From: Aquifex aeolicus VF5
Lineage (GTDB): Bacteria > Aquificota > Aquificia > Aquificales > Aquificaceae
Direction of reading: 5' to 3'
Length of the DNA: 32,000 nt
Assembly (NCBI RefSeq): GCF_000008625.1
Contig: NC_000918.1
Location: 930,001-962,000, forward strand
Of the stretch, positions 1,108 through 32,000 are shown one piece after another; within the stretch, counting starts at the first letter, position 1; each line of letters begins with the position of its first letter. The notes beneath the pieces are model-generated. The model was given only the letters and a program-made list of their open reading frames with translations. It had not been told where the DNA came from and did no database searches. Both the position numbers and the translations under genes were made by a program.

Positions 1108-1119
1108 GGGGGCAAGCGG

Positions 1120-2130: not shown

Positions 2131-2141
2131 GAGGATTTAGG

Positions 2142-2747
2142 ATGGGTGTGAAGAAGTTAAGCAGGAAGGATTACTTGAACATACTAGAAAGCATACTTTT
2201 TATAGACTTCCTTAAGGGACTTTCCGTAACGCTGAAAAACCTCTTGAGGAGACCAATTACTACGGAATACCCGAAAGAAAAACTCACTCCTCCCAAGCGT
2301 TTCAGGGGAGCTCACGGGCACTATGTGTGGGACGGAACCGAACCTGACTCACTCAAAGCTATAGAAAAGTTCATGTCTTATGAAAAGGCAAAGAGCAGGT
2401 GTGTTGCCTGCTACATGTGTCAGACAGCCTGTCCCATGCCAACTCTTTTCAGAATAGAAGCGGTGCAGCTTCCTAATGGGAAGAAAAAGGTCGTAAGGTT
2501 TGACATGAACCTCCTTAACTGTCTCTTCTGTGGGCTCTGCGTTGACGCGTGTCCCGTGGGATGTCTTACGATGACGGATATCTTTGAACTCGCAAATTAC
2601 TCAAGGAGAAATGAAGTCCTTCGCATGGAGGACCTTGAGAAGTTCGCCATAGACTTCAAGCAAAGAAGGGGCAACGAGCCCGACAGAATTTGGCCAAATG
2701 ATGAAGAAAGGGAAAAACTGTGGGGGAAGATAGAGTGGAGTGGTTAA
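2142..2747 (+). CDS. nuoI: NADH-quinone oxidoreductase subunit I (2x[4Fe-4S] ferredoxin-type)
   Basis: Two CxxCxxCxxxCP motifs (CVACYMCQTACP, CLFCGLCVDACP). N-terminal LKGLSVTLKNLLRRPITTEYP and RFRG are typical of NuoI/Nqo9. AGGAGG SD upstream. Confidence 0.92.
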   Translation: MGVKKLSRKDYLNILESILFIDFLKGLSVTLKNLLRRPITTEYPKEKLTPPKRFRGAHGHYVWDGTEPDSLKAIEKFMSYEKAKSRCVACYMCQTACPMPTLFRIEAVQLPNGKKKVVRFDMNLLNCLFCGLCVDACPVGCLTMTDIFELANYSRRNEVLRMEDLEKFAIDFKQRRGNEPDRIWPNDEEREKLWGKIEWSG

Positions 2748-3223
2748 TCTTCTTCATCTTAGGAGCTTGGCTTATAATTTCTGCCTTGGGGACGGTTCTG
2801 GCTAAAAATCCCATTCACGTTATGCTCTTCTTCCTTTCCTCCTTACTCGCTATGGCGGGTCTTTTCCTGAGCCTCGGGGCGGAACTCCTCGCGGGTCTTC
2901 AGCTCATAATCTACGCGGTTGCCATAGTGGTGTTCTACGTCCTTGCCATAACCACGATACCTTGGGAAAAGATAAAGCGCTTTGAGGGTGTTTACAAAAC
3001 GGAAATTCTCACTGCATCCCCTATACTGCTTGTGCTCTTCCTCGTTATGAGTTACATGGTTATTAAGGGGAAGTTTGCTGAGCCTTCGGGTGTAGTAAAG
3101 GACAACGTGGAGGCTGTGGGAAGGACCTTATTTACTTCTTACCTCTTTCCCTTTGAGGTAGCTTCGGTAATACTTCTGGTTGCAATGGTGGGTGCAATCC
3201 TTCTTGCCAGAAAAGAAGAGTGA
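2720..3223 (+). CDS. nuoJ: NADH-quinone oxidoreductase subunit J
   Basis: 167-aa hydrophobic protein in the conserved nuoJ position between nuoI and nuoK. GTG start at 2720, with an alternative GTG at 2735; it overlaps the nuoI 3' end. Confidence 0.8.
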   Translation: MGEDRVEWLIFFILGAWLIISALGTVLAKNPIHVMLFFLSSLLAMAGLFLSLGAELLAGLQLIIYAVAIVVFYVLAITTIPWEKIKRFEGVYKTEILTASPILLVLFLVMSYMVIKGKFAEPSGVVKDNVEAVGRTLFTSYLFPFEVASVILLVAMVGAILLARKEE

Positions 3224-3232
3224 GGTGGGGCT

Positions 3233-3535
3233 ATGGATATAATCAAGGCTTATATCATCCTAAGTATTGCTTTATTCCTCATAGGACTTCTTGGTGTTAT
3301 AGTTAGGAAGAACCTCATTACGGTTCTCGTTAGCACGGAGCTAATGCTGAACGGTATTAACCTAGCTCTGGTTGCAGCTGACAAGGTTCTCGGAAGAGTT
3401 GATGGGCAAATTTTTGCCTTTTTTGTTCTGACGGTGGCTGCGGCGGAAGTTGCGGTAGGGCTTGGTTTAATAGTCGCCATATTCAGGCTCAAAGGTTATG
3501 AAGCTTCTCATGAGATTTCTCAGTTGAGGGATTGA
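3233..3535 (+). CDS. nuoK: NADH-quinone oxidoreductase subunit K
   Basis: 100-aa 3-TM protein with ELMLNGINLALV and AAAEVAVGLGLIV motifs typical of NuoK/ND4L. GAGGTGGGG SD upstream. Confidence 0.88.
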   Translation: MDIIKAYIILSIALFLIGLLGVIVRKNLITVLVSTELMLNGINLALVAADKVLGRVDGQIFAFFVLTVAAAEVAVGLGLIVAIFRLKGYEASHEISQLRD

Positions 3536-5400
3536 GCATGATGGTGGAGTTGGGGGTTATCTTCACACCACTGATAGCATTTTTAATAATATTGCTCTTC
3601 GGAAGAAAGATAGGAGATTTAGGAAGCGGGATAATAGCGTCAGTAGGAGCAGGACTTACAACTCTTTTCTCCTTGGTAGTCGCCCTCAAAGCCATTCACT
3701 CTCCCGTTCACGTCAAACTCTATGACTTCCTCCCAATTGGCAATTACACACTCTCCCTCGGATTTTACTTTGACTCACTCTCTTCCTTGATGGCACTTGT
3801 CGTCACATTCGTTGCCACTCTCATATTCGTCTACTCAATCGGCTACATGCGTGACGAGTTCGGCAAATGGGTCTTCAAGTTCTACGCTTACCTATCACTC
3901 TTCCTCTTCGCTATGCTCCTTATCGTGCTCTCGGACAACCTCCTCGGAATCTTCTTCGGCTGGGAAGGTGTGGGACTTGCTTCATACCTCCTTATCGGAT
4001 ACTACCACGAACAAAAAAAAGCTACAAAAGCTTCCTTTGAAGCCTTCGTTATGAACAGAATAGGTGACTGGCTCTTTATCTTCGGTATCATCTACTCCTT
4101 TTATCTCTTCAAAACCTTAGAAATCACTCAAATATTCCCCAAAGTTGAAGAAGTAGACAAGTACGCTCTTGGCGTTGCCACAATGCTCCTCTTTGGAGGA
4201 GCAGTCGGAAAGTCGGGACAATTTCCGCTTCATACGTGGCTACCAAACGCAATGGCAGGTCCCACTCCAGTTTCTGCACTCCTTCACGCAGCCACGATGG
4301 TAGCAGCTGGTGTCTACATGGTAGCAAGACTCTATCCCATGTTTGAAGCAACACCTCAAACGCTAAAACTCATAGTGCTTATCGGAGCGATAACCATGAC
4401 AATGGCAGCACTCGCAGGTGCTGTTCACAACGACATAAAGAAGATAATCGCATTTTCAACGATGAGTCAGCTCGGATACATGTTTGTTGCTCTGGGAGTG
4501 GGGGACAAGGGCGGAGCGATGTTCCACCTCACCACTCACGCTTTCTTCAAAGCCCTCCTGTTTTTAGCGGCTGGTGCTGTAATAACAGCGTTCCACCACC
4601 ACCTTTACGACATCTTCAAGATGGGAGGGCTAAAGAAGTACATGCCTGTGACTTATGTGGCGTTTATGATAGGGGCACTTAGTTTGGCAGGAGTGTTTCC
4701 CTTCAGTGGTTTCTGGAGTAAAGACAGGATAGTGGCGAGCATGTACGAGTGGAGCGGAGTGCTTGGAGTTCTTGGAACGATAGTGGCGTTTATAACTGCA
4801 TATTACGCGTTCAGGGAAGGATTTTTGGTGTTTCACGGAAGAGAGAGATGGAGGGAGATATACGATAAAGACGTTCATGAAGTAGAGGGAGTGATGACGG
4901 TACCTATGGGGCTATTAGGATTTTTGACCGTTCTCACAGGGCTATTTGGTCTTTGGCTAGAGCACTGGTATGTAGGCTTGATAGGAGGGGAGGAGAAGGG
5001 GATACACCTGAGTGTTGCGCTAGTGTCGCTCGGAGTGGCAATAGCTGGGATATGGCTTCCGTGGCCGGTATATGTGAAGAAGGTGATAGATTACAACAAA
5101 GCGTATGAATCTTTGAAGTTTATACACACGACTTTCAAGGAGCAATTCTTTACTGAAAAGCTCTACCACAACGTTGTTGCGGGTGGGTACCTTACTTACT
5201 CAAGGAGTCTGTATTCCACCGTTGAAAGGCTTTTTATAGACGGTATTGTGAACGCTACGTATCCGATTGTGGAACTCCTGGGAAGTGTGCTAAAGTTCTT
5301 CCAGAACGGAAGGCTCAGCTGGTACGTGATGGGTCTTGCCACGGGATTGACTATAATTGTCCTTATACTTTTTGCAATAACGATTAGAGGAGGGCTGTAA
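3532..5400 (+). CDS. nuoL: NADH-quinone oxidoreductase subunit L (antiporter-like)
   Basis: 622 aa with WEGVGLASYLLIGYY, GKSGQFPLHTWLPNAMAGPTPVSALLHAATMVAAGVY and a long C-terminal extension with a final TM helix. The track start is TTG 3532. ATG at 3538 or 3541, with GAGGG 7 nt upstream of 3538, is at least as likely. Confidence 0.93.
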   Translation: MSMMVELGVIFTPLIAFLIILLFGRKIGDLGSGIIASVGAGLTTLFSLVVALKAIHSPVHVKLYDFLPIGNYTLSLGFYFDSLSSLMALVVTFVATLIFVYSIGYMRDEFGKWVFKFYAYLSLFLFAMLLIVLSDNLLGIFFGWEGVGLASYLLIGYYHEQKKATKASFEAFVMNRIGDWLFIFGIIYSFYLFKTLEITQIFPKVEEVDKYALGVATMLLFGGAVGKSGQFPLHTWLPNAMAGPTPVSALLHAATMVAAGVYMVARLYPMFEATPQTLKLIVLIGAITMTMAALAGAVHNDIKKIIAFSTMSQLGYMFVALGVGDKGGAMFHLTTHAFFKALLFLAAGAVITAFHHHLYDIFKMGGLKKYMPVTYVAFMIGALSLAGVFPFSGFWSKDRIVASMYEWSGVLGVLGTIVAFITAYYAFREGFLVFHGRERWREIYDKDVHEVEGVMTVPMGLLGFLTVLTGLFGLWLEHWYVGLIGGEEKGIHLSVALVSLGVAIAGIWLPWPVYVKKVIDYNKAYESLKFIHTTFKEQFFTEKLYHNVVAGGYLTYSRSLYSTVERLFIDGIVNATYPIVELLGSVLKFFQNGRLSWYVMGLATGLTIIVLILFAITIRGGL

Positions 5401-6875
5401 TGGAAACTCTCTTAAACGTTGCCATATTCCTTCCATTGGTGGGGGCACTGCTTGTCGCCGTAATAAGAAACGAAATTTTTGCCAAAGTTGCTTCCATACT
5501 CATAGGTGCCGTTGTAGCGCTAATATCCCTGGTCCTCTTCGTTAACTTTGATTTCAGTAAAAAAGGGTTTCAGTTTGAAACATACGTTCCGTGGATAAAG
5601 ACCTTAGGCATAGGCTACCACGTAGGCGTTGACGGAATGGCGATAAGCCTTATCCTCATGACTTCCATCCTCTTTCTCGCCGCATATATATGGTCCTGGA
5701 AGATAGAAGACAGACCTTCCCTCTACTTTGCCCTCTTCCTGGCACTGGAAACCGCCTGTATAGGTGTTTTCGCAGCACTGGACTTATTTCTCTTTTACCT
5801 GTTCTGGGAAGGAATGCTCATTCCTATGTACTTCATAATCGGTTTCTGGGGACACGACAGGAAGGTTTACGCGGCTAATAAGTTCTTCCTTTACACCTTC
5901 TTCGGTTCTCTGTTTCTTCTCCTCGGTATTGCTTCTATACTCGTTTATGGATACTTTGAAACGGGTAAGATTTCCTTTGATTACTTTTTCCACCTCGGAC
6001 TTGATTACCCCCTTTGGCTTGAGCTTATAGCTTTCCTGTTATTCGGTATTGGTTTTGCGGTAAAGATACCCATGTGGCCCTTCCATACATGGCTTCCGGA
6101 CGCTCACGTTGAAGCTCCTACCGCAGGTTCCGTAATACTTGCAGGTGTTCTCCTTAAGATGGGAACTTACGGTTTTGTAAGATTTTCCCTGCCCTTCTTC
6201 CCAGAAGCCTCTAAGTACTATATACCCCTTATATTCACACTCAGCGTAGTTGCAGTTATATACGCTGCCATGATGGCTATAGCTCAAACACACATGAAGA
6301 GACTCATTGCTTACTCTTCAATATCTCACATGGGACTCGTTACACTCGGAACCTTTGCTATGAACAGCGATGCCTTGAACGGTGCGATTTACCTCATGAT
6401 AGCTCACGGGCTTTCTTCCGCGGCTCTCTTCCTAGGAGCTGGCTTTATATACGACAGGATACACTCTTACCACATGGATGACCTGGGCGGTCTTGCGAGA
6501 TACATACCTTACTTTACCTTTGCCTTCTTTCTTGCGGTTCTTGCCGGTATAGCGTTCCCCGGATTTGCGAGCTTCGTTTCTGAATTCCTTATACTCCTAG
6601 GCATATTTGAAAAGTTCCCCGTATGGGCTTTTGTTGCAGGTATAGGTATGGTTCTGGGAGCGGCATACTCGCTATACATGTTCAGAAAGGTAATGCTGGA
6701 AGAGGAGAGTATTCCCGAGGAAAGAGTAGAAAAGTGGAAGAAGTTGAAAGACTTGGAACTCCACCACGCTATTCCCTTTGCACTGATAATTGGCATGGCT
6801 CTCGTTATGGGAATATACCCTTATCCCTTTGTGAAGATAGTGGAACACACTTCTAAACTCGTGTTCGGAGGTTGA
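5400..6875 (+). CDS. nuoM: NADH-quinone oxidoreductase subunit M (antiporter-like)
   Basis: 491 aa with FYLFWEGMLIPMYFIIGFWG and PFHTWLPDAHVEAPTAGSVILAGVLLKMGTYG. The ATG overlaps the nuoL stop (TAATG). Confidence 0.92.
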   Translation: METLLNVAIFLPLVGALLVAVIRNEIFAKVASILIGAVVALISLVLFVNFDFSKKGFQFETYVPWIKTLGIGYHVGVDGMAISLILMTSILFLAAYIWSWKIEDRPSLYFALFLALETACIGVFAALDLFLFYLFWEGMLIPMYFIIGFWGHDRKVYAANKFFLYTFFGSLFLLLGIASILVYGYFETGKISFDYFFHLGLDYPLWLELIAFLLFGIGFAVKIPMWPFHTWLPDAHVEAPTAGSVILAGVLLKMGTYGFVRFSLPFFPEASKYYIPLIFTLSVVAVIYAAMMAIAQTHMKRLIAYSSISHMGLVTLGTFAMNSDALNGAIYLMIAHGLSSAALFLGAGFIYDRIHSYHMDDLGGLARYIPYFTFAFFLAVLAGIAFPGFASFVSEFLILLGIFEKFPVWAFVAGIGMVLGAAYSLYMFRKVMLEEESIPEERVEKWKKLKDLELHHAIPFALIIGMALVMGIYPYPFVKIVEHTSKLVFGG

Positions 6876-6879
6876 AGCC

Positions 6880-8274
6880 TTGAACTGGAACGCTATACTT
6901 CCCGAAGCCATACTCGCAATAGGAATTCTCACGGTTTTCATACTTGAGCTATTCCTTGAAAGGAAGCATTACAAGTTCTTGAGTGTCCTTGCTTTTATAT
7001 TCGTTGTCCTTTCAGGGTATTCAATATTCTTCGTAAATTATCCTGCAAAACTCTTTTTTGACGGCTTTTCCGTAGATGCTCTTAACTTAATCGGCAAGCT
7101 TTTCATTTTGGCAGTCACCGGGTTTGTACTCCTTTCTTCCTACGACTACTTCTCCAAGAAGAACTCCCAGTATGGAGAACTCCCATACCTCTACCTGATA
7201 GCAACACTCGGTTTAATGGTTATGATTTCCTCCGACAACCTTGCGATAATCTTCACGGGACTGGAACTCGCCTCCATCACCATGTACATACTCGTGGGTT
7301 TGTTCAGAAGGGAGTATCTCTCAAAGGAAGGAGCTTTTAAGTACTTGGTAATAGGAACTACTGGAACGTCCATGTACGCACTCGGTTCAGCACTCGTTTA
7401 CGCCTCAAGCGGTTCTATGGTTCTGAGTCCCGTAAAAGAAGAGAACACTTTATTTGCCTTAGGTGTGATACTGATAATTTCCGCCCTTGCTCTGAAGGTT
7501 TCCGCTGTTCCCTTCCACTTCTGGACGCCTGACGCTTACGAGGGAGCACCTACGCCCACTACAGCTTACCTTTCAACTGTTCCCAAAATCGGTATGTACT
7601 TCCTCTTTGTCAAACTCACCATGTACCTCTTTTCCGCGTTCCCCGATTGGAAGTACGTGGTTATGCTTCTCGCTGTACTTTCCATGTTCTACGGAAATAT
7701 AGTCGCTTACGCTCAGAAGTCCGTAAAGAGACTGCTCGCCTACTCCTCAATAGCACACGCAGGATACTTCCTTACCGCTTTAACCGCTGTGGATAAACAC
7801 CTCTTTTCCGCACTTCTCTTTTACGTGTTCGTTTACGCTCTTGCAACCGTCGGAGCGTTTACGGTTCTCGCTATCCTTGAGAAAAAGGAAGGCTGGACAC
7901 ATCACTTCTTAGATTTCAAAGGATTAAAAGAGGAAAACCCTGTTCTCGCTTCTATGCTAGCACTCTTCCTCTTTGCCTTGATAGGTATCCCTCCCGCTGC
8001 TGTATTTCTGGGTAAGCTCGGTATATTCTTCGGGCTAGTTAAAACCGATATGTTCGCCCTTGGTATCCTCTTTGCCATAGCGAGTTTAATTTCCGCAGGG
8101 TATTACCTAAAGGTTATCGTTTACATGTTCCTCTACTCGGGAGAAGTAAGACACGGTCAGACTACGGTTTCCGCTGGAGAGGCTTTCACGGTTCTCGGTA
8201 CGGCTTTCCTCGTTATATTCTTTGGTCTATTTCCCCATGTGGTTCTTGACTTTATCCTGCGTGCCCTCTCTTAA
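6880..8274 (+). CDS. nuoN: NADH-quinone oxidoreductase subunit N (antiporter-like)
   Basis: 464 aa with VPFHFWTPDAYEGAPTPTTAYLS and KRLLAYSSIAHAGY. TTG start with GGAGG 7 nt upstream. Confidence 0.9.
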   Translation: MNWNAILPEAILAIGILTVFILELFLERKHYKFLSVLAFIFVVLSGYSIFFVNYPAKLFFDGFSVDALNLIGKLFILAVTGFVLLSSYDYFSKKNSQYGELPYLYLIATLGLMVMISSDNLAIIFTGLELASITMYILVGLFRREYLSKEGAFKYLVIGTTGTSMYALGSALVYASSGSMVLSPVKEENTLFALGVILIISALALKVSAVPFHFWTPDAYEGAPTPTTAYLSTVPKIGMYFLFVKLTMYLFSAFPDWKYVVMLLAVLSMFYGNIVAYAQKSVKRLLAYSSIAHAGYFLTALTAVDKHLFSALLFYVFVYALATVGAFTVLAILEKKEGWTHHFLDFKGLKEENPVLASMLALFLFALIGIPPAAVFLGKLGIFFGLVKTDMFALGILFAIASLISAGYYLKVIVYMFLYSGEVRHGQTTVSAGEAFTVLGTAFLVIFFGLFPHVVLDFILRALS

Positions 8275-23469: not shown

Positions 23470-24075
23470 TTACTCTCTCTTTTCAATAACCTTGTCTATT
23501 AGACCGTAATCTTTGGCTTCGTAAGGAGACATGAAGTAGTCCCTTTCTATGTCGTTCGCTATCTTGTCCTTGGGTTGTCCCGTATGCTTTGCGAGTATGT
23601 CTATGAGCATTTCCTTAATTCTCTTTATCTCTTCAGCGTGGATGATTATGTCCGTAGCCTGTCCCTGTATTCCACCGAGGGGCTGGTGAATCATTATCCT
23701 CGAGTGGGGAAGTGCGTACCTCTTTCCGGGAGCTCCCGCGGCAAGGAGTATTGCTCCCATGGAAGCCGCCTGTCCCATGCATATAGTAACCACGTCGGGT
23801 TTTATGTACTGCATAGTGTCGTATATGGCGAGTCCTGCTGTAACCGAACCGCCCGGGGAGTTTATGTATAGGTATATATCCTTGTCCGGATCTTGGCTTT
23901 CGAGGAAAAGTAGCTGGGCAACGATTAAGTTGGCAACATGGTCGTCTATAGGAGAACCGAGAAGGACGATCCTGTCCTGAAGGAGCCTCGAATATATGTC
24001 GTAGGCTCTTTCACCTCTCGGCGTTTGCTCTATTACTATGGGAACGAGCTGGTCAAGTATTTCCTTGTGATTCAT
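23470..24075 (-). CDS. clpP: ATP-dependent Clp protease proteolytic subunit ClpP
   Basis: 201 aa with [21 protein letters not shown], the catalytic GQAASMG Ser and IHQP His. GAGGAGGT SD lies inside the tig 3' end. Confidence 0.96.
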
Positions 24076-25389
24076 TCTTTACCTCCTCTTTTTCTTCCTT
24101 CTTTTCTTCTTCCTGTTTTTGCTCCACTTCCTTTATCTTAACCTTGGAAATGATTTCCTTAAGGGCTTTCTTTCTCCTTGCGTCTTCGTAAACAACCTGT
24201 TCGAGGTTGTTCTCCTTGAAGTACTTCTTAATTTCATCCACGGTAGTTCCGTACTGCTCTGCGAGTTCTTTGTACTGTGCCTCTATATCTTCTCCAGTAG
24301 GTTCTATTCCCTTCTCCTGAGCGTACTTGTCGAGAATAAACCTGAGTTTTATGTTAGCCTCGGCTATAGGCTGAACTTCTTCCACTATCTTCTTTATGTC
24401 CACGTACCTGGTATCTATACCGAGTGCCTGAAGTTCCCTCAGTCTTCTATCAACTAGGAAGGATAATTCCCTTCTCAGGAGCGTCTGGGGCACGGGAATG
24501 TCGTGTATTTCCACGAGCTTGTCTGCAACTCTTTCTTCGATTACCTGCTCTTTCAGTTTTTCGAGTTTTTGTTTTATGTCTTCTCTGATCTTTTCTTCGA
24601 GGTCCTTAAGGGACGCGTAGCCAAGTTCTTTTGCGAACTCGTCGTTTAGCTCTGGAAGAACCTTCTTCTTTATCTCCTTTATCTTGATCTTTATGTTAAC
24701 TTTTCCTACTTCCTTACCTTCTTGATCGTAGAGGGGGAGTTCTTTTAGTTCTACTTCTTCTCCTACCTTCTTTCCTTTGAGGGCTTCCTCTACTTCGGGT
24801 CTGAGCATTCCCTGACCGAGTATTACGGAGGTTTCCTGTTTTACCTTCTCACCTTCTCCGCCTATTTCTTCCACTTCGTATTCAACGACGAGCATATCTC
24901 CCTCTTGGGCGGGTTCGTTTTCATCTTTTGGTTCCCAGACGGCGTTTGCCTCCCTCAGTCTCTCGAGTTCCTCCTTCACGTAATCTTCCTTAAACTCTAT
25001 CTTGGGAACTTCTACTTCGAGGTTTTCTACGTCTTTTAGCTCGAACTCGGGAGCAACCTCGAAGCTCACCACGTACTTTACCTTTCCTTCCTTTTCGTCA
25101 ACTTCTACCTTTTCTAAGAAAACGTCTGCCACTGGCTTCAGGTTAGCCTCTTCCAGAGCTTTCTGAAGGGTCTCATCGGCGATCTTCTTTCCTACTTCTT
25201 CCTCTACGTAGTCCTTGTACTTAGCCCTTACTATCCAGAGGGGAGCTTTCCCTTTTCTGAACCCTTGAATCTGAACGGTTTTCTGGAGTTGCTTGTACAT
25301 CTCGTCTATTTTTTCCTTAACGCTATCTCCCTGTATTTCAACGGTTAGGGCTTTGAAAAGACTTCCCTGTCCTGAACCTCGACTTTCAT
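24053..25389 (-). CDS. tig: Trigger factor (peptidyl-prolyl isomerase); the 5' end appears interrupted by a 1-nt frame disruption
   Basis: The main ORF contains the TF signature GFRKGKAP, an FKBP-like middle domain and an acidic Lys/Glu-rich C-terminus, in the classic tig-clpP-clpX order. The only SD-preceded ATG (GGAGGTaaaaATG, ATG at 25389-25387) is out of frame with the main ORF. The main frame has no ATG, GTG or TTG between the tRNA and Met64 of the track ORF. See the finding on tig. Confidence 0.85.
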
Positions 25390-25408
25390 TTTTACCTCCG
25401 TTTTTGTG

Positions 25409-25495
25409 TGGTGCGGGTGGCGGGAGTCGAACCCGCACGCCCTTACGGGCACCGGATCCTAAGTCCGGCGCGTCTGCCAGTTCCGCCACACCCGC
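25409..25495 (-). tRNA. tRNA-Leu, anticodon UAG, class II with long variable arm, CCA encoded
   Basis: Manual fold of the reverse complement GCGGGTGTGGCGGAACTGGCAGACGCGCCGGACTTAGGATCCGGTGCCCGTAAGGGCGTGCGGGTTCGACTCCCGCCACCCGCACCA. It has a 7-bp acceptor stem (GCGGGTG/CACCCGC), a 3-bp D stem and an anticodon stem CCGGA/TCCGG with loop CTTAGGA. It also has a variable arm GCCC-GTAA-GGGC, a T arm GCGGG-TTCGACT-CCCGC, discriminator A and CCA. Confidence 0.95.
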
Positions 25496-25512: not shown

Positions 25513-26160
25513 TTAAAATTCCACGATGTGGTTATCCATTAACTTAACCAAGTCAGAAGGTCTCGAGAGTGTAAAGTCGGGTATTTGAGAGTTTAACTTA
25601 ACGTAACCCCACAGGGCAAGGGCCGTTTTAGTTCCCGCCCTTTTGCCAGCCTCTATGTCCGCATCCGTGTCTCCTACTATTAAGGCCTTTTCGGGTTCTT
25701 CTCCCAATATTTCGAGAGTCTTCAATACCGGCGTAGGAGAGGGCTTCTTTTCTCCGAAGGTATCTCCTCCCACGATCAGGTCAAAGTAGCCCGAAAGATT
25801 AAGTATGTCGAGGATCTTCTTTGAGAGTTCCTCGAGCTTGTTTGATACTACAGCGAGTTTAAAACCTTTACTTTTCAGGGCTTCGAGTGTATAAGGAATT
25901 TCCGGATAAGGTTTCGTATAAACCACGGGGTTTTCGAGGTAGTGTTTTCTGAAAACTTCAACGTACTCTTCCCTGAACTTGTCTTTGAGAACCTTCTCAA
26001 GCAGAGCCCTGACTCCCCCGCCTATGTACTTGGTTACGTTATCGGGATAGTACTCCTCTAAACCGAGCTCTTTTAAAGTCTTCTCAAGAGCCAAGGCTAT
26101 ATCCTTTGCAGAGTCTATAAGTGTTCCGTCCAGGTCAAACAGAATTACTCTCATGCGCAC
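25513..26160 (-). CDS. gph: HAD-superfamily hydrolase, phosphoglycolate phosphatase-like
   Basis: 215 aa with motif I ILFDLDGTLIDS, motif II VVSNK and motif III/IV K...GDTDADIEAGKRAG. The second ATG, at 26154, forms an ATGA overlap with the upstream stop and may be the true start. Confidence 0.8.
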   Translation of the reverse strand: MRMRVILFDLDGTLIDSAKDIALALEKTLKELGLEEYYPDNVTKYIGGGVRALLEKVLKDKFREEYVEVFRKHYLENPVVYTKPYPEIPYTLEALKSKGFKLAVVSNKLEELSKKILDILNLSGYFDLIVGGDTFGEKKPSPTPVLKTLEILGEEPEKALIVGDTDADIEAGKRAGTKTALALWGYVKLNSQIPDFTLSRPSDLVKLMDNHIVEF

Positions 26161-26633
26161 TTCTTTATGTAATCTTCCAGTCTTTCCTTCTTAAACTCCT
26201 CCTTCTTCACGTAGTTTATAACGCACGCAAACTTCTCAGGAGGAAGGTAGCCAGGAATCTGGAGTATTAAGTTTCCGTTCTTGTCGTAAAAGATGAGGTT
26301 CGGAAAAGACGTAGCCTTCAGTTTTCTCGCGAGTTCCTTTTCGGACAAAACTTCAACCTTCCCGCCTATGTTAGTCTTGACGGGCTCGTAACTCTCGTAC
26401 AGGAGTGTGTAAATGTCTATACCCTTCAGGGCTTCCTGAAGTCTCTTTTCAGTCTTTATATCCTTCTTCAACTGGGCACAGTATATACAGCTTTTGCTCT
26501 CCACTATAAGAAGCGCATACTTGTTCTTCGGTATTATGGACTTTGCCTCCTGAACCTGAGATTTTTCCTCTCCCGAGGAACACGCAATCAGGAAGATAAA
26601 CACGATAAAGAGAAATTTGTAAATCACTCTCAT
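26151..26633 (-). CDS. Periplasmic thioredoxin-fold lipoprotein (CxxC; TlpA/SoxW-like)
   Basis: 160 aa with a signal peptide and lipobox (FLIACSS). It has a single CIYC redox motif preceded by LLIVESKS and a later SFPNLIFYD cis-Pro-type segment, consistent with a thioredoxin fold. Confidence 0.7.
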   Translation of the reverse strand: MRVIYKFLFIVFIFLIACSSGEEKSQVQEAKSIIPKNKYALLIVESKSCIYCAQLKKDIKTEKRLQEALKGIDIYTLLYESYEPVKTNIGGKVEVLSEKELARKLKATSFPNLIFYDKNGNLILQIPGYLPPEKFACVINYVKKEEFKKERLEDYIKKCA

Positions 26634-26639
26634 AATAGA

Positions 26640-26646
26640 TATTTTA
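26640..26646. promoter_or_regulatory. Overlapping -10-like A/T hexamers facing both ways in an 18-nt divergent spacer
   Basis: The plus strand has TATTTT (26640-26645) 6 nt before ATG 26652. The minus strand has TAAAAT (26646->26641) 7 nt before ATG 26633. Neither gene has an SD. Confidence 0.25.
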
Positions 26647-26651
26647 AAGAT

Positions 26652-27040
26652 ATGGCTACATACGAAGATGTAAAGAGAATGGTTCTTGACCTCGGTTTAG
26701 AAATCAAGGAGGAGATTCCGGAAGAGGAAGTCATAATCGTGGAAGACGAGGAGAGGGGAATAAAAAACATGGTAATTGACTGCGAGGAGGAAGTCCTCAT
26801 AATAGAACAACCGATAGGAAAGGTTTCGGAAAAACATTACGGATGGTTTTTGGAGAGGAACAGGACCTGCCCTTCGGAGCTTTCGCTTTGGACTCAGAAG
26901 ACGGGATAATTCTCTTTAGACAGACTTTGAGGCTCGATACCTTCGATTACGAGGAACTCGAAGCGAGTATATCCTCACTTGAGATATTTTTCGCAGAGTG
27001 GGGAGACGAGCTTTTAAATATCCTGAAGGAGGCTAAGTGA
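26652..27040 (+). pseudogene. Small acidic DUF2170 (YjfI)/YbjN-like protein, split into two overlapping ORFs by a frame disruption near 26861
   Basis: Track ORFs 26652..26909 and 26843..27040 overlap in different frames. Read together (...KHYGWFLERN + QDLPFGAFALDSEDGIILFRQTL...) they give one 129-aa protein. Its layout resembles my recollection of E. coli YjfI (FLLRNQ...), a chaperone-like fold. Its stop overlaps the pspA start. Confidence 0.6.
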
Positions 27041-27741
27041 TGGGACTTTTAAAGAGGCTTTTGAGAGTTGTAAGGGCGGAAGCCCATTCGGTTGTAGAAA
27101 AGCTTGAGGACCCTATAAAAATAACCGAAGAGGGATTGAGGGAACTCAGGAAGCAGTTAAAAGAGGCTATGGAAGCCTTGGCACAGGTAAAGGCAAGCCA
27201 GATAAGGTTTGAGAGGGAAGCCAGAAACGAAAAGGAAAGGGCCAAGGCACTCGTGAAGAAAGCCGAAAGCCTTTTACTCCAAGCACAGGAAGGAAAGATA
27301 TCACCCGAAGAGGCAGAAAAACTCGCCGCGGAACTCATCCAGAAGGCTGAACTCCACGAAAAAAACGCAAGAAGACTGGAAGAAGAGGCAAAGAGACAGA
27401 GGGAAATGGCGGTTAAACTTCAGGCAAAGATTGACGAGCTCAAGGTCCAGATCGCAAAGTACGAGGCCGAACTAAAAACACTAAAGGCGAGACTCGCTAC
27501 CGCAAGAGCGGTAAAAAAGGTAAACAAGCAAATTGCGAAAGTTGACCCTTCCGATACGATAGCCATGCTCGAGAGAATGAAGGAAAAGGTAGAAGAAGAA
27601 GAGACGCTTGCACAGGCTTACGAGGAACTTGCAAAACAGGAAGTAGCACTGGACGTGGAAAGCGAAGCGGAAAAGAAGTTAAAGGAAGTGGAGAGTAAAC
27701 AGAAGTTAGAAGAATTGAAGAAGAGACTCGGTCTTTCCTGA
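27040..27741 (+). CDS. pspA: Phage shock protein A / IM30 (Vipp1) family, ESCRT-III-like membrane remodelling protein
   Basis: About 233 aa, starting MGLLKRLLRVVRAEAHSVVEKLEDPIKITEEGLRELRKQL, the canonical PspA N-terminus (compare E. coli MGIFSRFADIV...LLEKAEDP). The rest is a continuous heptad-rich coiled coil. GAAGGAGG SD lies 6 nt upstream of ATG 27040; the track uses GTG 27037. Confidence 0.9.
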   Translation: MGLLKRLLRVVRAEAHSVVEKLEDPIKITEEGLRELRKQLKEAMEALAQVKASQIRFEREARNEKERAKALVKKAESLLLQAQEGKISPEEAEKLAAELIQKAELHEKNARRLEEEAKRQREMAVKLQAKIDELKVQIAKYEAELKTLKARLATARAVKKVNKQIAKVDPSDTIAMLERMKEKVEEEETLAQAYEELAKQEVALDVESEAEKKLKEVESKQKLEELKKRLGLS

Positions 27742-27742
27742 G

Positions 27743-28273
27743 ATGGGATTTCTTGAGAGGATAAAGAAACTCTTTTCGAAGGAAGAAGAAAAGCAGGAAG
27801 AAAGCATTCTCTCCAATCCTCTGGAAAGACTGAAAAAGGGGGACATAATCGAAATAGACGGGGAGACGTGGGAGGTTACGGACGTTGCTCTTTATGATTA
27901 CGGGGCGAGTAAAGAAAAGGAGTGGGAAATTCGTTCCGCCTCCCGCAGAGGATTTTTGAGCCTTGAGGAGGGAAAGATATACTTCTTTGAAGAAATTGAC
28001 CCAGAAGAACTGGAACCCGATCCGGGAGAGCATTTTAGAAAGTACGGAAAACCTCCGGAGTATGTAACCTACAAAGGAAAGAGGTACAGGCTAAAGTACG
28101 CGGGAAAGGCAAAGTACATTAAGAACCTCGAGAGTTATCCCGTAACCATCTGGGAGTTCAGGAGCGAAGACGGAGAAATGATAGACCTTGAGATTTGGGA
28201 TGAGTACGAAATTGAAGCCTACAAAGGGAGAGAACTACAGGAATGGGAAATTGAGAGTATTCTTCCTCGTTAG
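27743..28273 (+). CDS. DUF4178 domain protein
   Basis: 176 aa. After a short amphipathic N-terminus, the segment GDIIEIDGETWEVTDVALYDYG...KEWEIRSASRRGFLSLEEGKIYFF fits the DUF4178 pattern (G..y.V.g...W.Ey.L..g...WLs.e). The start is 1 nt after the pspA stop. Confidence 0.7.
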   Translation: MGFLERIKKLFSKEEEKQEESILSNPLERLKKGDIIEIDGETWEVTDVALYDYGASKEKEWEIRSASRRGFLSLEEGKIYFFEEIDPEELEPDPGEHFRKYGKPPEYVTYKGKRYRLKYAGKAKYIKNLESYPVTIWEFRSEDGEMIDLEIWDEYEIEAYKGRELQEWEIESILPR

Positions 28274-28757
28274 CCTATTACTCTTTCTCCTTTCCTGCTC
28301 CTCTCCAAAAGAGGTAAAGGGAAAACCTGAAGAGTTTTTCTTAAAGAACTACGAAAAGGGTATTTACAGATACGCGATTTTAGAAAATAAGCCACAGGAC
28401 ACGGAATACTGCAAGGTCCATCTAAAAGATCTTATAAAGGAAGGTGAGTACATCTTGAGTCTTCCCTCCCGCTACAAGGTGGAAAGGGAAAAATTGAGCA
28501 CAAAGCTTTACTGCGAACTCTTTTCCAAGGGAAGGTTTCTGGAGGTTGCGGGAGAAAGGTTTACACCTCCTTCCGCTCTAAAGGTGGTGACCTTCGTAGA
28601 GTTAAAGGAGGGTTTGTTCCTCTGGTTTCTTGAAAGGGTTCGTGCTCAGGGCGGTGGTGGCGGGGGGATAATATTCCTTCCACTGCCCATTCCGTGGGGA
28701 GGAGGGTACAATTACGAGGGTAGGTACAGAACTCCGACGGGGAGGTACGGAAAGTGA
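28251..28757 (+). CDS. Lipoprotein with a Gly-rich C-terminal tail, function unknown
   Basis: TTG at 28251 gives MRVFFLVSLLLFLLSC, a textbook lipoprotein signal with an LLSC lipobox. The track start TTG 28188 or ATG 28200 would add a long basic n-region. The C-terminus is GGGGGGIIFLPLPIPWGGGYNYEGRYRTPTGRYGK. It overlaps the DUF4178 gene by 23 nt. Confidence 0.6.
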   Translation: MRVFFLVSLLLFLLSCSSPKEVKGKPEEFFLKNYEKGIYRYAILENKPQDTEYCKVHLKDLIKEGEYILSLPSRYKVEREKLSTKLYCELFSKGRFLEVAGERFTPPSALKVVTFVELKEGLFLWFLERVRAQGGGGGGIIFLPLPIPWGGGYNYEGRYRTPTGRYGK

Positions 28758-29560
28758 GCGGATTCTTAATAGCCCTTTTCTGGGTAATTTTTTCTAAGTA
28801 CGTTTTTGACGTGCTCTTTTTCAGAGAAGCAAAGATTGAAAGGGAAATTTTCGGGAATAAGAACCTTGCACTTTCCCTGTCTTACGCGGGTTACTTTCTG
28901 GGACTTGCCTTTTCCTTTTACAGCGTTTACTTTTACGAGAGTCTTTTCAGGGAAGTTCTTTACCTGATTTTCGTGAGCTTTACACTCCTTCTCGGAGTTT
29001 ACATATTTGACCTCATCTTTTTGAGGAAAATAGACCTGAAAGAAGAAATTCTTAGGGGAAACGCAGGTGCGGGGATCACGCAGGGCATTTACTTTCTTTC
29101 CCTCGGTATTTTGATATCCGCTTCCTTCTGGAGAAAGGAGAGCTTCATCCTTTCGGTAATCTACTCCTTAATTTACCTTTCGCTCGGTATGGTTATGCTC
29201 TTTATTTCCACGCTTTTAATGTCCAGACTCCTTAAACTTAACTTTGAGGAAGAAGTAAAGAAGGAAAACTTTTCCGCTTCCCTCGTGCTTGGAAGTATAA
29301 CTCTTGGCGTTTCCGTCGTTTTATACGGTGCGATATCGGGAGAGTTCATGGGAAGCCTTATTTTTGACTTGTTCTCAACTGTCCTTTACTTCGTCGTTTC
29401 TCAGGTACTGATGGTGATTTTTTACGTTGTCGTTGAGTTTTTACTGTTCAGGAAAGTTATTCTTTCCTCAGAGGTTTACGAGAATAACCTTAGTGCCTCC
29501 CTTATACTGAGTGCTACATTCATAGCGAGTGCCTTCATAACCCTTGCGGTTATGGGATGA
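28754..29560 (+). CDS. Integral membrane protein with four tandem DUF350 (YjfL-like) units
   Basis: 268 aa, about 8 TM helices. Four spaced copies of the DUF350-type loop motif occur: EIFGNKNLALSLSYAG, EILRGNAGAGITQG, VKKENFSASLVLGS and VYENNLSASLILSA. The GTG start overlaps the upstream stop (GTGA). Confidence 0.75.
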   Translation: MSGFLIALFWVIFSKYVFDVLFFREAKIEREIFGNKNLALSLSYAGYFLGLAFSFYSVYFYESLFREVLYLIFVSFTLLLGVYIFDLIFLRKIDLKEEILRGNAGAGITQGIYFLSLGILISASFWRKESFILSVIYSLIYLSLGMVMLFISTLLMSRLLKLNFEEEVKKENFSASLVLGSITLGVSVVLYGAISGEFMGSLIFDLFSTVLYFVVSQVLMVIFYVVVEFLLFRKVILSSEVYENNLSASLILSATFIASAFITLAVMG

Positions 29561-31038
29561 GTGTTTCTACAGCTTTAAAGCTCTGTATTTTCTTTACTGG
29601 TTTTGCGGGAATAGTTGCCGAGTACTCCCTTGCCACTCTGGCTACTTACCTCCTCGGAAACGCGGTTCTCCAGTGGAGCGTGGTGATTTCCATCTTCCTG
29701 CTTTCTATGGGCCTTGGCTCTCACGCGAGCAGGTATATTCCTGATGATAAAACACCTCTCGCTTTTGTCCTCGCGGAACTCTTCCTCTCCCTCCTCGTTC
29801 CCTTTTCCGTTCCCATAGCCTATCACTTCGCAAATAACTTCCTTCACCTCCAGACGGTTATTTACGGACTTTCCTTCGTTATAGGGAGCTTAATAGGTCT
29901 GGAAATTCCCCTGGCTGTTCGTATAAACAACATGTACGAAGAACTCAAGGTAAATATATCTTCCGTGCTCGAGAAGGATTACCTTGGCTCAGTTCCAGCG
30001 GGACTACTTTACGCATACCTTTTTCTCCCTAAACTCGGTCTTCCCCTAACGGCTATTCTCGCGGGATTTTTCAACTTAATTTCTGCATTTTTACTGGTAA
30101 AGGTATTAAAACCGAAAAAGTTTTTAAAGTTTTTGGCGATTTTTACTTTCTTTTTACTCGCAACTTACGCAGTTGGACACAAGAGGATAACACTCTACGA
30201 AGAGCAGAAGTTTTACGGAGAGGAGATAATCCACTTTGAGCAAACCCCTTACCAGAAGATAGTTTTAACACGGTTTGGAAAACACTACTCTTTATACTTG
30301 GACGGACACCTCCAGTTCTCAACACTTGATGAAAAACGCTATCACGAGACGCTCGTTCACGTTCCCGCCTCTTTTTTAAAAAGATATGAAAAGGCTCTAA
30401 TACTCGGCGGAGGGGACGGACTGGCTTTAAGAGAACTCAGGAAATACCCTTTCGGGGAAATACACCTCGTTGATCTGGACCCTAAAATGATTGAGTTTTC
30501 AAAAAAGAATCTCGTTATGAGGAAAATTAACGAAAACAGCTTTTACGACACGAGGTTAAAGGTATTTTCGGAGGACGCCTTTAACTTTGTAAAAAAGACA
30601 AAAGAGAAGTATGATTTCGTGATTGTGGACCTCATAGACCCCAGAACCCCATCAAGTGCGAGAGTTTACTCCCTGGAGTTTTACATGTCTTTGAAAAACA
30701 AACTAAAAGAAGACGGCATTTTCATAACTCAGGCGGGAGACACTTTCTACAAGAGGGAGGTGTTCTGTTCCATTCTAAAAACTATTAAGAAGGCGGGATT
30801 TTACGCGTACCCTTTAGTTGTGTACATCCCTACCTTTGGCGAGTGGGGGATGGTTATAGGGAGTAAAGAGCCTTTAAACTTTGAGAACTTTGAACTCAAG
30901 GAAAAAACCGAGTTCCTGAACAGGGAAAGGGCTTTAGCCTTTTACACACTCGGGAAGAGTTTGGAGTGCCCGAATGTGGAAGTAAACACTTTACTGAAAC
31001 CCGTGCTTATTTATTATTACTACAAAATACAAAATTAA
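29557..31038 (+). CDS. Membrane-anchored spermidine/spermine synthase-like aminopropyltransferase (about 7 TM helices plus a SpeE domain)
   Basis: 493 aa. The first 210 or so residues are hydrophobic helices. The C-terminal domain has YQKIVL, LDGHLQFSTLDEKRYHETLVH, ILGGGDGLALRE, HLVDLDPKMIE, DAFNFV, YDFVIVDLIDP and DGIFITQAG, which match SpeE-family dcSAM and polyamine binding motifs. The ATG overlaps the upstream stop (ATGA). Confidence 0.88.
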   Translation: MSVSTALKLCIFFTGFAGIVAEYSLATLATYLLGNAVLQWSVVISIFLLSMGLGSHASRYIPDDKTPLAFVLAELFLSLLVPFSVPIAYHFANNFLHLQTVIYGLSFVIGSLIGLEIPLAVRINNMYEELKVNISSVLEKDYLGSVPAGLLYAYLFLPKLGLPLTAILAGFFNLISAFLLVKVLKPKKFLKFLAIFTFFLLATYAVGHKRITLYEEQKFYGEEIIHFEQTPYQKIVLTRFGKHYSLYLDGHLQFSTLDEKRYHETLVHVPASFLKRYEKALILGGGDGLALRELRKYPFGEIHLVDLDPKMIEFSKKNLVMRKINENSFYDTRLKVFSEDAFNFVKKTKEKYDFVIVDLIDPRTPSSARVYSLEFYMSLKNKLKEDGIFITQAGDTFYKREVFCSILKTIKKAGFYAYPLVVYIPTFGEWGMVIGSKEPLNFENFELKEKTEFLNRERALAFYTLGKSLECPNVEVNTLLKPVLIYYYYKIQN

Positions 31039-31063: not shown

Positions 31064-32000
31064 ATGGAAAAGGTATTGGCAGAGGAAAGGATTGACCTCG
31101 GAAGATACGACGAGAGATTTTACGCAATTGTGGGAAGGGGAGACGAAAACATAAAGTTCTTCTCCAAGTTCTTCGACGTGAGGATAGTCCCGAGGGGAAC
31201 TGAACTCATAATAAAGGGAGAGGAAGACAAGGTAAGGGAGTTCGTAAACTTCTTAAAGGCTGTTTTGAAGAGGCTCGAGCACGAAAGGCTCACCGCGGAG
31301 GAAGTGAAAGAGTACGCAAAACAGTTTTTGAAGAGCGTGGAAGCATACAAAATTGAGGAACAACCGGGCAGGGAAGAGAAAGAACTTGAAGAGGAAGTAA
31401 TACTCATAACCCACAGAAAGAAGGCAATAGTTCCCAAGACCGAAACCCAAAAGAAGTACGTAGAAGCCATAAAGAAGAACGACATAGTGTTCGGTATAGG
31501 TCCCGCAGGTACGGGAAAAACATACCTCGCTATGGCTATGGCCCTCCAGCACCTCAAGGAAGGTAAGGTAAACAAGATCATCTTAACGAGACCAGCGGTA
31601 GAGGCGGGAGAAAAGCTCGGATTCCTTCCGGGAACTATAGCTGAAAAGGTTCACCCTTACCTCACTCCACTCTACGACGCCCTATACGATATGGTGGACT
31701 ACGACAAGGCTAACTACATGCTTGAAAGAAACATAATAGAGATAGCTCCCCTTGCCTTTATGAGAGGAAGAACCTTAAACGATGCCTTCATAATCCTCGA
31801 TGAAGCACAAAACGCAACCAGGGACCAGATGAAGATGTTTTTAACGAGGATAGGATTTGGCTCTAAGGCAGTAATCACCGGTGACGTTACGCAGATAGAC
31901 CTTCCCAAGAAAAAAGAGTCTGGACTAATAGAAGCTATGGAAGTTCTCAAAAACATAGAAGGTATAGAGTTTATATTCTTCAAACAAACGGACGTTGTGA
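31064..32000 (+). CDS. phoH: PhoH-like ATPase (PhoH/YbeZ family), 3'-truncated by the window edge
   Basis: This ORF is missing from the track because it runs off the window. My translation from ATG 31064 reads MEKVLAEERIDLGRYDERFYAIVGRGDENIKFF... It contains Walker A GPAGTGKTYLAMA, LTRPAVEAGEKLGFLPG, IILDEAQN and TGDVTQIDLP. Confidence 0.93.
   Translation, partial: MEKVLAEERIDLGRYDERFYAIVGRGDENIKFFSKFFDVRIVPRGTELIIKGEEDKVREFVNFLKAVLKRLEHERLTAEEVKEYAKQFLKSVEAYKIEEQPGREEKELEEEVILITHRKKAIVPKTETQKKYVEAIKKNDIVFGIGPAGTGKTYLAMAMALQHLKEGKVNKIILTRPAVEAGEKLGFLPGTIAEKVHPYLTPLYDALYDMVDYDKANYMLERNIIEIAPLAFMRGRTLNDAFIILDEAQNATRDQMKMFLTRIGFGSKAVITGDVTQIDLPKKKESGLIEAMEVLKNIEGIEFIFFKQTDVV

Follow-up and report, generated by a model that had tools for sequence, protein, structure and literature searches.

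Ravi et al. (2024; mSystems, PMC11237479) described, as a "second major group" exemplified by AAN56744-AAN56747, operons in which a CesT/Tir-PspA dyad occurs with a spermidine-synthase-like domain fused to a seven-transmembrane (7TM) region, an 8TM protein of the DUF350 family, a lipoprotein described as novel, and a DUF4178 protein rich in beta structure. Here we examine a six-gene block at positions 26652-31038 of a 32,000-nucleotide stretch of the Aquifex aeolicus VF5 chromosome (NC_000918.1, positions 930,001 to 962,000; hereafter the window), whose plus-strand genes encode, in order, a CesT_Tir_1/YbjN-type chaperone, a PspA/IM30 family protein, a DUF4178 protein, a lipoprotein, a DUF350 membrane protein, and a membrane-anchored aminopropyltransferase of the 7TM-SpeE type. 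With a probability of roughly 0.6, we consider this block to be the A. aeolicus copy of the widespread envelope module described by Ravi et al., built from two sub-modules, in which we propose that the enzyme aminopropylates the terminal lysine of a protein tail. The initial annotation of this DNA, made from the sequence without database searches, named the six protein types correctly except for the family of gene 1, and stated that comparative surveys list PspA neighborhoods of this kind; indeed, the published operon is exactly this six-to-seven-gene arrangement. Its proposal of an envelope module tied to polyamines agrees with much the same idea put forward by Ravi et al. and is therefore not new, and its further argument from a hyperthermophilic lifestyle fails because most members occur in mesophilic lineages (Nitrospinota, Desulfobacterota, Scalindua, and marine or soil proteobacterial megaplasmids). 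Since the operon itself is already in the comparative-genomics literature, the newer part of the present analysis is a covariation between protein termini and neighboring enzymes, together with the substrate hypothesis that it suggests.

The window matches the group described by Ravi et al. in having adjacent and co-directional chaperone and PspA genes, along with genes for DUF4178, an 8TM DUF350 protein, and a 7TM-fused spermidine-synthase-like (7TM-SpdSyn) enzyme. It differs in that no RHH regulator is present and a PhoH-like gene follows instead, in that the lipoprotein of Aquifex has a folded domain with no detectable relation to the lipoproteins of other phyla, and in that gene 1 is interrupted. 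A second relative, the Escherichia coli yjfIJKLMC operon, likewise encodes a chaperone-like protein, a PspA-family protein, a soluble DUF protein, a DUF350 protein, and a lipoprotein, with a polyamine-type enzyme as its last gene product. The initial annotation had given this series correctly, including the exchanged positions of DUF350 and lipoprotein relative to the window and the replacement of the terminal enzyme by a non-homologous one of polyamine type (ATP-grasp versus SpeE-type). The lipoproteins of yjfIJKLMC and of ygiB-ygiC also carry a basic Gly/Ser/Arg tail. However, the E. coli operon ends in an ATP-grasp peptide-spermidine ligase, its other families are DUF2170, DUF2491, and DUF1190, and its lipoprotein ends in Gly-Gly rather than Gly-Lys. 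BLASTP comparisons reveal no similarity of YjfI or YjfJ to the window proteins. The block thus falls outside the yjfIJKLMC type, because its terminal enzyme is SpeE-type and its lipoprotein gives no DUF1190 match.

The classical Psp system (pspF-pspABCDE) and LiaH/Vipp1 share with the window a protein of the PspA/IM30 fold family that has an N-terminal amphipathic helix. The window protein (27040-27741, 233 amino acids, with the Shine-Dalgarno sequence GAAGGAGG just upstream) matches PF04012 with an E value of 1e-57 and solved Vipp1/PspA chains with an E value of 1e-12. In contrast, its scores against the classical equivalog models are only 30 bits (TIGR02977, cut-off 243) and 17 bits (NF007974, cut-off 336), by which measure it belongs to the fold family but is no ortholog of classical PspA. 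Among the window open reading frames (ORFs) there is no PspF-type AAA+ sigma-54 activator, nor is PspB or PspC seen, which is as the initial annotation had stated.

The linkage of these genes was surveyed in one genome per species, using the chaperone as anchor, as DUF4178 lacks any stretch conserved enough for this purpose. In total, 295 species were found, and the best 80 loci were analyzed with hidden Markov models (HMMs) built for the task. In these 80 loci, the chaperone and PspA genes adjoin in 79, DUF4178 directly follows PspA in 58, and a 7TM-SpeE gene is present in 43. When the count is restricted to the 38 loci that have 6 kb or more to either side, the enzyme is found in 22 and DUF4178 in 31; the chance expectation for a SpeE gene at such loci is about 1% or less, a value that is estimated rather than computed. 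The linkage extends across more than ten phyla with differing gene orders and orientations, the lineages including Aquificota, Nitrospinota, Nitrospirota, Desulfobacterota, Chlorobiota/Ignavibacteria, Planctomycetota (Scalindua), Gemmatimonadota, Acidobacteriota, Latescibacterota, KSB1, and Melainabacteria. Conservation of the neighborhood across phyla, which the initial annotation had put forward as a check on its proposal, is therefore borne out.

Two sub-blocks can be recognized in the survey, one consisting of chaperone, PspA, and DUF4178, and the other of lipoprotein, DUF350, and enzyme, whose three genes always travel together in that order. Relative to the chaperone-PspA dyad, the enzyme gene is co-directional and downstream in 13 of the 43 loci, as it is in Aquifex, convergent in 23, and upstream in 7; in most other phyla the block is divided between two transcription units that often converge. 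The chain of six genes in Aquifex is one among several arrangements, and Aquificota have both sub-modules joined in a single compact block of co-directional genes. The membrane sub-block also occurs without PspA, on megaplasmids of Proteobacteria and Gemmatimonadota, where it lies beside SPFH or TelA-type proteins and together with speD. In some loci, other membrane scaffolds (SPFH, TelA) thus take the place of PspA, in agreement with variants reported by Ravi et al.

Evidence that may bear on the substrate of the enzyme comes from the termini of its partner proteins. In all 43 informative loci of the 7TM-SpeE type, the disordered, Gly-rich tail of the membrane-anchored partner ends with a C-terminal Lys, usually as Gly-Lys. 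Specifically, Lys is the last residue in 33 of 33 distinct tails, and is preceded by Gly in 30 of them. An ORF ending in Gly-Lys lies no more than 2.5 kb away in 37 of the 40 loci with a full-length enzyme, the three exceptions being truncated or error-ridden contigs, against a background of 14 such endings among 1,218 other long ORFs. The folded parts of the partner proteins from other phyla have no detectable homology to that of Aquifex, and nearly all of these proteins have a basic Gly/Ser/Arg-rich tail leading to Gly-Lys. Where there is no large lipoprotein, a membrane-anchored protein of 61-172 amino acids with a Gly-rich tail is found instead, and it likewise ends in Lys (...FFGGK, ...PRAGK, ...YHGGK, ...GPESGK, ...SGGHK, ...RFRHGK, ...NSNRVK, and ...GPTHK). 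All six of the independent megaplasmid loci that lack PspA also have a small membrane protein with a terminal Lys.

A different ending accompanies the ATP-grasp enzymes, for which 80 metagenomic loci were collected with the peptide-spermidine ligase gene as anchor. The ORF directly upstream of the ligase gene ends in Gly-Gly in 30 of 33 distinct tails, and the E. coli lipoproteins YjfM and YgiB end ...GHWGG and ...RSMGG, respectively. Both YjfC and YgiC carry the annotation peptide-spermidine ligase, and a 2025 review reports the physiological substrate of ligases of this type as unknown. The last residue of the tail therefore tracks the chemistry of the neighboring enzyme, with a Lys amine accompanying an aminopropyltransferase and a Gly carboxylate accompanying a carboxylate-amine ligase. 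This covariation suggests that the end of the tail is the substrate of the enzyme encoded beside it, and the outcome of either reaction would be a tail bearing a spermidine-like group. Ravi et al. (2024) make no mention of Lys or Gly-Gly termini. Searches of full-text literature on protein aminopropylation, C-terminal spermidine, and DUF350 or DUF4178, which did not take in the 2019 study of Li et al. or the 2023 study of Pederick et al., yielded nothing beyond Ravi et al.

The Aquifex partner protein is the lipoprotein aq_1348 (28251-28757, 168 amino acids from a TTG codon at 28251), which has a signal peptide and the lipobox LLSC. The TTG start is taken to be right because the N-termini of nine homologues of 162-181 amino acids align at this position. 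In an AlphaFold2 (AF2) model, residues 20-133 form an alpha+beta fold with a pLDDT above 90, and residues 134-168 are disordered, with a pLDDT below 50. The disordered, Gly-rich tail, GGGGGGIIFLPLPIPWGGGYNYEGRYRTPTGRYGK (28650-28754), ends ...GRYGK, such that the last codon before the stop (28752-28754) specifies a Lys that may be the acceptor for the aminopropyltransferase. Both the Gly-rich tail and the TTG start, the latter given with reservation in the initial annotation, are therefore upheld. The lipoprotein has no Pfam or NCBIfam match, DUF1190 included, and its folded domain has no fold match in the PDB. Word-indexed homologue searches return matches confined to Aquificota, and the protein is not matched by an HMM trained on lipoproteins from other phyla, leaving the Gly-rich, Lys-terminated tail as the only common element; its lipobox and operon position would be compatible with the "Ctha_1186" type of Ravi et al.

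The enzyme (29557-31038, 493 amino acids) was assigned, like the other window proteins, by Pfam and NCBIfam profile searches with the curated NCBIfam cut-offs. It matches PF01564 (Spermine_synth) with an E value of 8e-61 and, over its full length, NF002956 with 525 bits against a cut-off of 472. An N-terminal multi-TM domain (residues 1-210, with six or seven hydrophobic segments) precedes a SpeE-type catalytic domain at about residues 215-470. Among solved structures, those of thermospermine synthase and polyamine aminopropyltransferases come closest to it. Invariant among 37 diverse family members are Q233, Q253, Y262-H263-E264, the GGGDG sequence at 284-288, D306 and D308, D340, and both D358 and D361 of a DLxDP motif. 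The window enzyme therefore retains all residues for binding decarboxylated S-adenosylmethionine (dcAdoMet) and for catalysis that are known from soluble SpeE enzymes such as spermidine and thermospermine synthases and Thermus SpeE (GGGDG, the acidic ribose and adenine ligands, the Asp residues of D-x-x-D-P, and YHE), with the catalytic motif in the DLxDP form of thermospermine and long-chain enzymes. Because all of these positions are invariant, the family appears to consist of active dcAdoMet-dependent transferases under purifying selection. Unlike the soluble enzymes, this type is fused to a multi-TM domain carrying three intramembrane Glu residues (E22, E74, and E116) that are invariant in 37 homologues, and its gene always has those for DUF350 and a Lys-terminated tail protein as neighbors. 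A speD gene is absent from the window and lies within the cluster in Alteromonas and Ralstonia.

The DUF350 protein (28754-29560, 268 amino acids) matches PF03994 with an E value of 6e-36 in two stretches of the 133-position model, and about eight TM segments are predicted by hydropathy. An alignment of 42 homologues reveals four E-x5-N repeats and the conserved acidic TM residues D86 and E228.

These features can be combined in a scheme in which the chaperone of CesT/YbjN type, an ESCRT-III-like PspA, and DUF4178 would form a cytoplasmic scaffold, and in which the lipid-anchored protein with its disordered Gly-rich tail, the 8TM DUF350 protein, and the multi-TM aminopropyltransferase would form a membrane part. 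The enzyme would use dcAdoMet to aminopropylate an amine at the membrane, for which the terminal Lys of the tail protein, with its epsilon-amine, is the most promising candidate. The side chain of Lys is an aminobutyl group, like half of putrescine, such that the product would resemble a tethered spermidine. DUF350 and the TM domain of the enzyme, both rich in conserved acidic residues, might handle the cationic tail or the cofactor, and PspA, held by its chaperone, would protect or remodel the inner membrane under the same stress. Hypusine on eIF5A and the oligo-propyleneimine lysines of diatom silaffins are known cases in which a Lys epsilon-amine bears a polyamine-type extension. These offer chemical precedent only, as the enzymes differ, and the connection to the tail would be one of analogy. 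We know of no bacterial or C-terminal example of a Lys-linked polyamine modification.

A wider form of this idea, which we put forward tentatively as possible rather than probable, is that protein-tail polyamination unites both enzyme classes, in that SpeE-like enzymes would aminopropylate the C-terminal Lys of their partners, and the yjfM-yjfC and ygiB-ygiC pairs would ligate spermidine to Gly-Gly. If true, this would name the physiological substrates of two enzyme families, reveal a bacterial post-translational modification of a new type, with PspA, SPFH, or TelA scaffolds as its guards, and tie PspA-type membrane scaffolds to a concrete modification of the envelope. If these are indeed enzyme-substrate pairs, then the targets of membrane SpdSyn-like fusions and the peptide substrate of YgiC/YjfC would become addressable with synthetic peptides.

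Several points weigh against modification of the tail in the module. For every member, the module is known from comparative genomics alone, and the Aquifex lipoprotein is not detectably homologous to those of other phyla apart from its tail. Topology also poses a difficulty. The mean Lys plus Arg counts of successive loops of the enzyme across the family (0.27, 3.22, 0.32, 2.68, 0, and 1.81) indicate, by positive-inside analysis, a cytoplasmic N-terminus (N-in). With seven TM segments this would place the catalytic domain outside, which is hard to square with the dcAdoMet cofactor, and a cytoplasmic location of the domain would require that residues 147-180 make up just one TM segment. Similarly, the tail proteins look exported, having a signal peptide and lipobox or N-in anchors, and dcAdoMet is cytoplasmic. 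In classical enzymes, the residue that contacts the distal amine of putrescine is the second Asp of DLxDP, and its retention here means that a diamine or polyamine could still be the acceptor. The conserved terminal Lys could serve other ends, such as anchoring or recognition, and the question of the substrate may also be touched by the work of Li et al. (2019) and of Pederick et al. (2023).

A competing reading, which follows the initial annotation, has the enzyme synthesize or elongate a free polyamine at the membrane, with its transporter-like TM domain, DUF350, or both acting in export, PspA as a buffer, and the lipoprotein only as a sensor or binding partner. We judge this unlikely, though it is the most serious competitor. 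It would suit an enzyme that exceeds the cut-off of the NCBIfam "polyamine aminopropyltransferase" model and whose nearest solved relatives, thermospermine and long-chain polyamine synthases, have the DLxDP motif in common with it; speD and amine-oxidase genes occur in some clusters, and acidic intramembrane residues would suit polyamine transport. However, free-polyamine synthesis leaves unexplained both the invariant Lys of the SpeE-type loci and the Gly-Gly of the ATP-grasp version. A related MFS-SpdSyn fusion is said to have failed to complement an E. coli speE mutant. Ravi et al. (2024), citing Li et al. (2019), already raised the aminopropylation of other substrates by 7TM-SpdSyn enzymes. 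The term polyamine synthase used in the initial annotation is no more than an annotated name, and free putrescine as the acceptor fits less well with the invariant C-terminal Lys of the partner, which points to a protein acceptor. We give still less weight to an arrangement in which the terminal Lys serves some end that does not involve the enzyme, such as covalent attachment to peptidoglycan or recognition by DUF350 or a protease, and in which the enzyme acts on a lipid or small amine. The C-terminal Lys of E. coli Lpp (Braun's lipoprotein), which is covalently attached to peptidoglycan, provides a precedent, and highly basic tails could bind anionic envelope polymers. Yet the loci read show no L,D-transpeptidase gene accompanying the cluster, a Lys-terminated protein goes with the enzyme even when that protein is reduced to an inner-membrane peptide of 61-78 amino acids, versions of which occur in Ralstonia and Ensifer, and the switch from Lys to Gly-Gly follows the chemistry of the enzyme.

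Finally, the six genes might be adjacent merely because the Aquifex genome is compact, with no functional link among them. The five junctions were all confirmed at the coordinates given in the initial annotation by means of the ORF table and the bases at each site. The pspA ATG shares one base with the gene 1 stop codon (TGATG, 27038-27042), a single nucleotide separates pspA from the DUF4178 gene (TGAgATG, 27739-27745), the DUF4178 and lipoprotein genes overlap by 23 nucleotides (28251-28273, with the DUF4178 stop at 28271-28273 and the lipoprotein TTG at 28251), the DUF350 GTG overlaps the lipoprotein stop (GTGA, 28754-28757), and the enzyme ATG overlaps the DUF350 stop (ATGA, 29557-29560). 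The initial annotation read this packing as the signature of one co-translated unit. However, overlaps or spacers of at most 12 nucleotides are the rule between same-strand neighbors throughout the window, and an unrelated PhoH-like ATPase gene (31064-32000, same strand) begins only 25 nucleotides after the block, with no terminator-like site between the two. Tight junctions are therefore weak evidence, and the real evidence of linkage is the conservation of the gene set. The recurrence of that set in more than ten phyla, in varied orders and orientations, already contradicts adjacency through compactness alone, which we consider very improbable. The PhoH-like gene is arranged identically in contig L001 (Logan ERR15087784), a public contig that is 99.94% identical to the window over 6,534 nucleotides, and elsewhere PhoH lies outside the conserved module.

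Gene 1 (26652-27040) encodes, when intact, an acidic protein of 129 amino acids with an isoelectric point (pI) of 4.2. The initial annotation treated it as a single ORF of a DUF2170-like protein, and neither point holds for the window sequence. A frameshift that had been overlooked divides the gene into two ORFs, 26652-26909 and 26843-27040, that overlap by 67 nucleotides and cover positions 4-68 and 75-130, respectively, of the CesT_Tir_1 profile (PF22550). Profile searches place gene 1 in CesT_Tir_1/YbjN (PF22550/PF10722), and a BLASTP comparison with YjfI (DUF2170) gives no match. Profile matches for PspA_IM30, DUF4178, DUF350, and Spermine_synth were all recovered as the initial annotation expected, and only its DUF2170 was not. 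CesT_Tir_1/YbjN and DUF2170 nonetheless both belong to one CesT/Tir superfamily (Ravi et al., 2024; PMC11237479).

The split results from a one-nucleotide deletion, with GG at 26863/26864 of the window and GGG in L001, and the intact 129-amino-acid gene is present in L001 and in 76 homologues. An alternative repair of the gene, the addition of a T to the run of five T residues at 26846-26850, was rejected, as the homologues read through WFLERNR. The window and L001 differ at just four places in 6.5 kb, of which three are within 80 nucleotides of gene 1: the indel at 26863/26864, a synonymous change at 26881, and a Phe in place of a conserved Leu at 26942. The remaining difference, in the lipoprotein gene (28710), gives Asn in the window and Asp in all homologues. 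At all three of the non-synonymous or indel differences (26863/26864, 26942, and 28710), the window disagrees with every homologue. The break looks like a sequencing error or poor patch in the 1998 reference, or a lesion of the strain, rather than recoding. The overlap of the two ORFs might seem to invite a programmed -1 ribosomal frameshift, which we regard as scarcely credible: the near-identical L001 has the extra G and an intact gene, gene 1 is unbroken in every one of about 90 homologous loci, there is no slippery heptamer at the break site, and the differences from L001 cluster at gene 1, where the window has the non-consensus state at two of the three, as it does at 28710.

The start codon of gene 1 is separated by only 18 nucleotides (26634-26651) from a divergent thioredoxin-like lipoprotein gene (26151-26633, minus strand). 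This gap holds no Shine-Dalgarno sequence, and TATTTTAAAGAT directly precedes the ATG. Given so short a gap, either both promoters lie inside coding sequence or the gene 1 transcript is nearly leaderless. Promoter and terminator scans gave only background-level matches, with no terminator 3' of the last block gene, and a sigma-54 promoter search found no consensus near the block.

The DUF4178 protein (27743-28273, 176 amino acids, pI 4.7) matches PF13785 with an E value of 7e-25 and has no signal peptide or TM segment, consistent with its earlier description as soluble. Its AF2 model (mean pLDDT 86) has a disordered N-terminal MGFLERIKKLF and a beta-rich body with 12 strands. Sequence searches find no solved relative, and the model has no fold match in the PDB (best E value 0.04, TM-score 0.2). 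Word-indexed homologue searches with this protein, as with the lipoprotein, return matches confined to Aquificota. When the DUF4178 profile is compared by hhalign with that of E. coli DUF2491, the result is 38% and the aligned part is the N-terminal MGFF..LF.K motif only. This motif, M-G/S-F-F-x-x-L-F-x-K, is common to DUF4178 proteins (window 27743-27790; L089 11303-11350) and E. coli YjfK of DUF2491, and is disordered in the model. The N-terminus of the window PspA, MGLLKRLL, is likewise amphipathic. The shared motif may be a common peptide for binding a membrane or a partner.

Some surveyed loci contain additional genes. A small J-domain (DnaJ) protein is encoded directly upstream of the chaperone-PspA dyad in loci from KSB1, Chloroherpetonaceae, Thermoanaerobaculia, and Cytophagia (L005 7628-7981, L017 9547-9957, L064 4761-5138, and L066 6839-7201). 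In chloroplasts, the J-protein CDJ2 is reported to deliver VIPP1 to HSP70B, and the J-domain neighborhood of PspA is possibly analogous. A gene for an FAD amine-oxidase-like protein lies inside some clusters (L023 11149-12831, L002 9128-10801, and L172 8526-10148). The Latescibacterota protein begins with a twin-arginine signal and a lipobox (MSSLTRRQFL...LPAC) and is probably a periplasmic lipoprotein. A periplasmic amine oxidase suggests that some amine product reaches the periplasm and can be removed by oxidation, which would fit a free or a tethered polyamine alike. In Nitrospirota, an extra protein of about 194 amino acids with two TM segments and no Pfam family is encoded between DUF350 and the enzyme (L032 10974-11549, L043 12773-13357, and L084 12763-13347), and the Lys-terminated tail there is on a separate small protein.

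Elsewhere, the window has ordinary housekeeping content unrelated to the PspA block. Several genes for NADH dehydrogenase (nuoD, H, I, J, L, M, and N types) stand in a row (61-8274), and are followed by ispD, mobB, and genes for a rhomboid protease, a helicase, ThiF, an SDF transporter, an HlyD/OEP efflux pair, TtuA, CTP synthase, and others. An Rfam scan of the window returned tRNA as its only match, namely tRNA-Leu (anticodon TAG) at 25409-25495 on the minus strand. The mechanically called GTG-start ORF of trigger factor (24053-25489) overlaps this tRNA gene, and thus the true start of trigger factor must be farther downstream.

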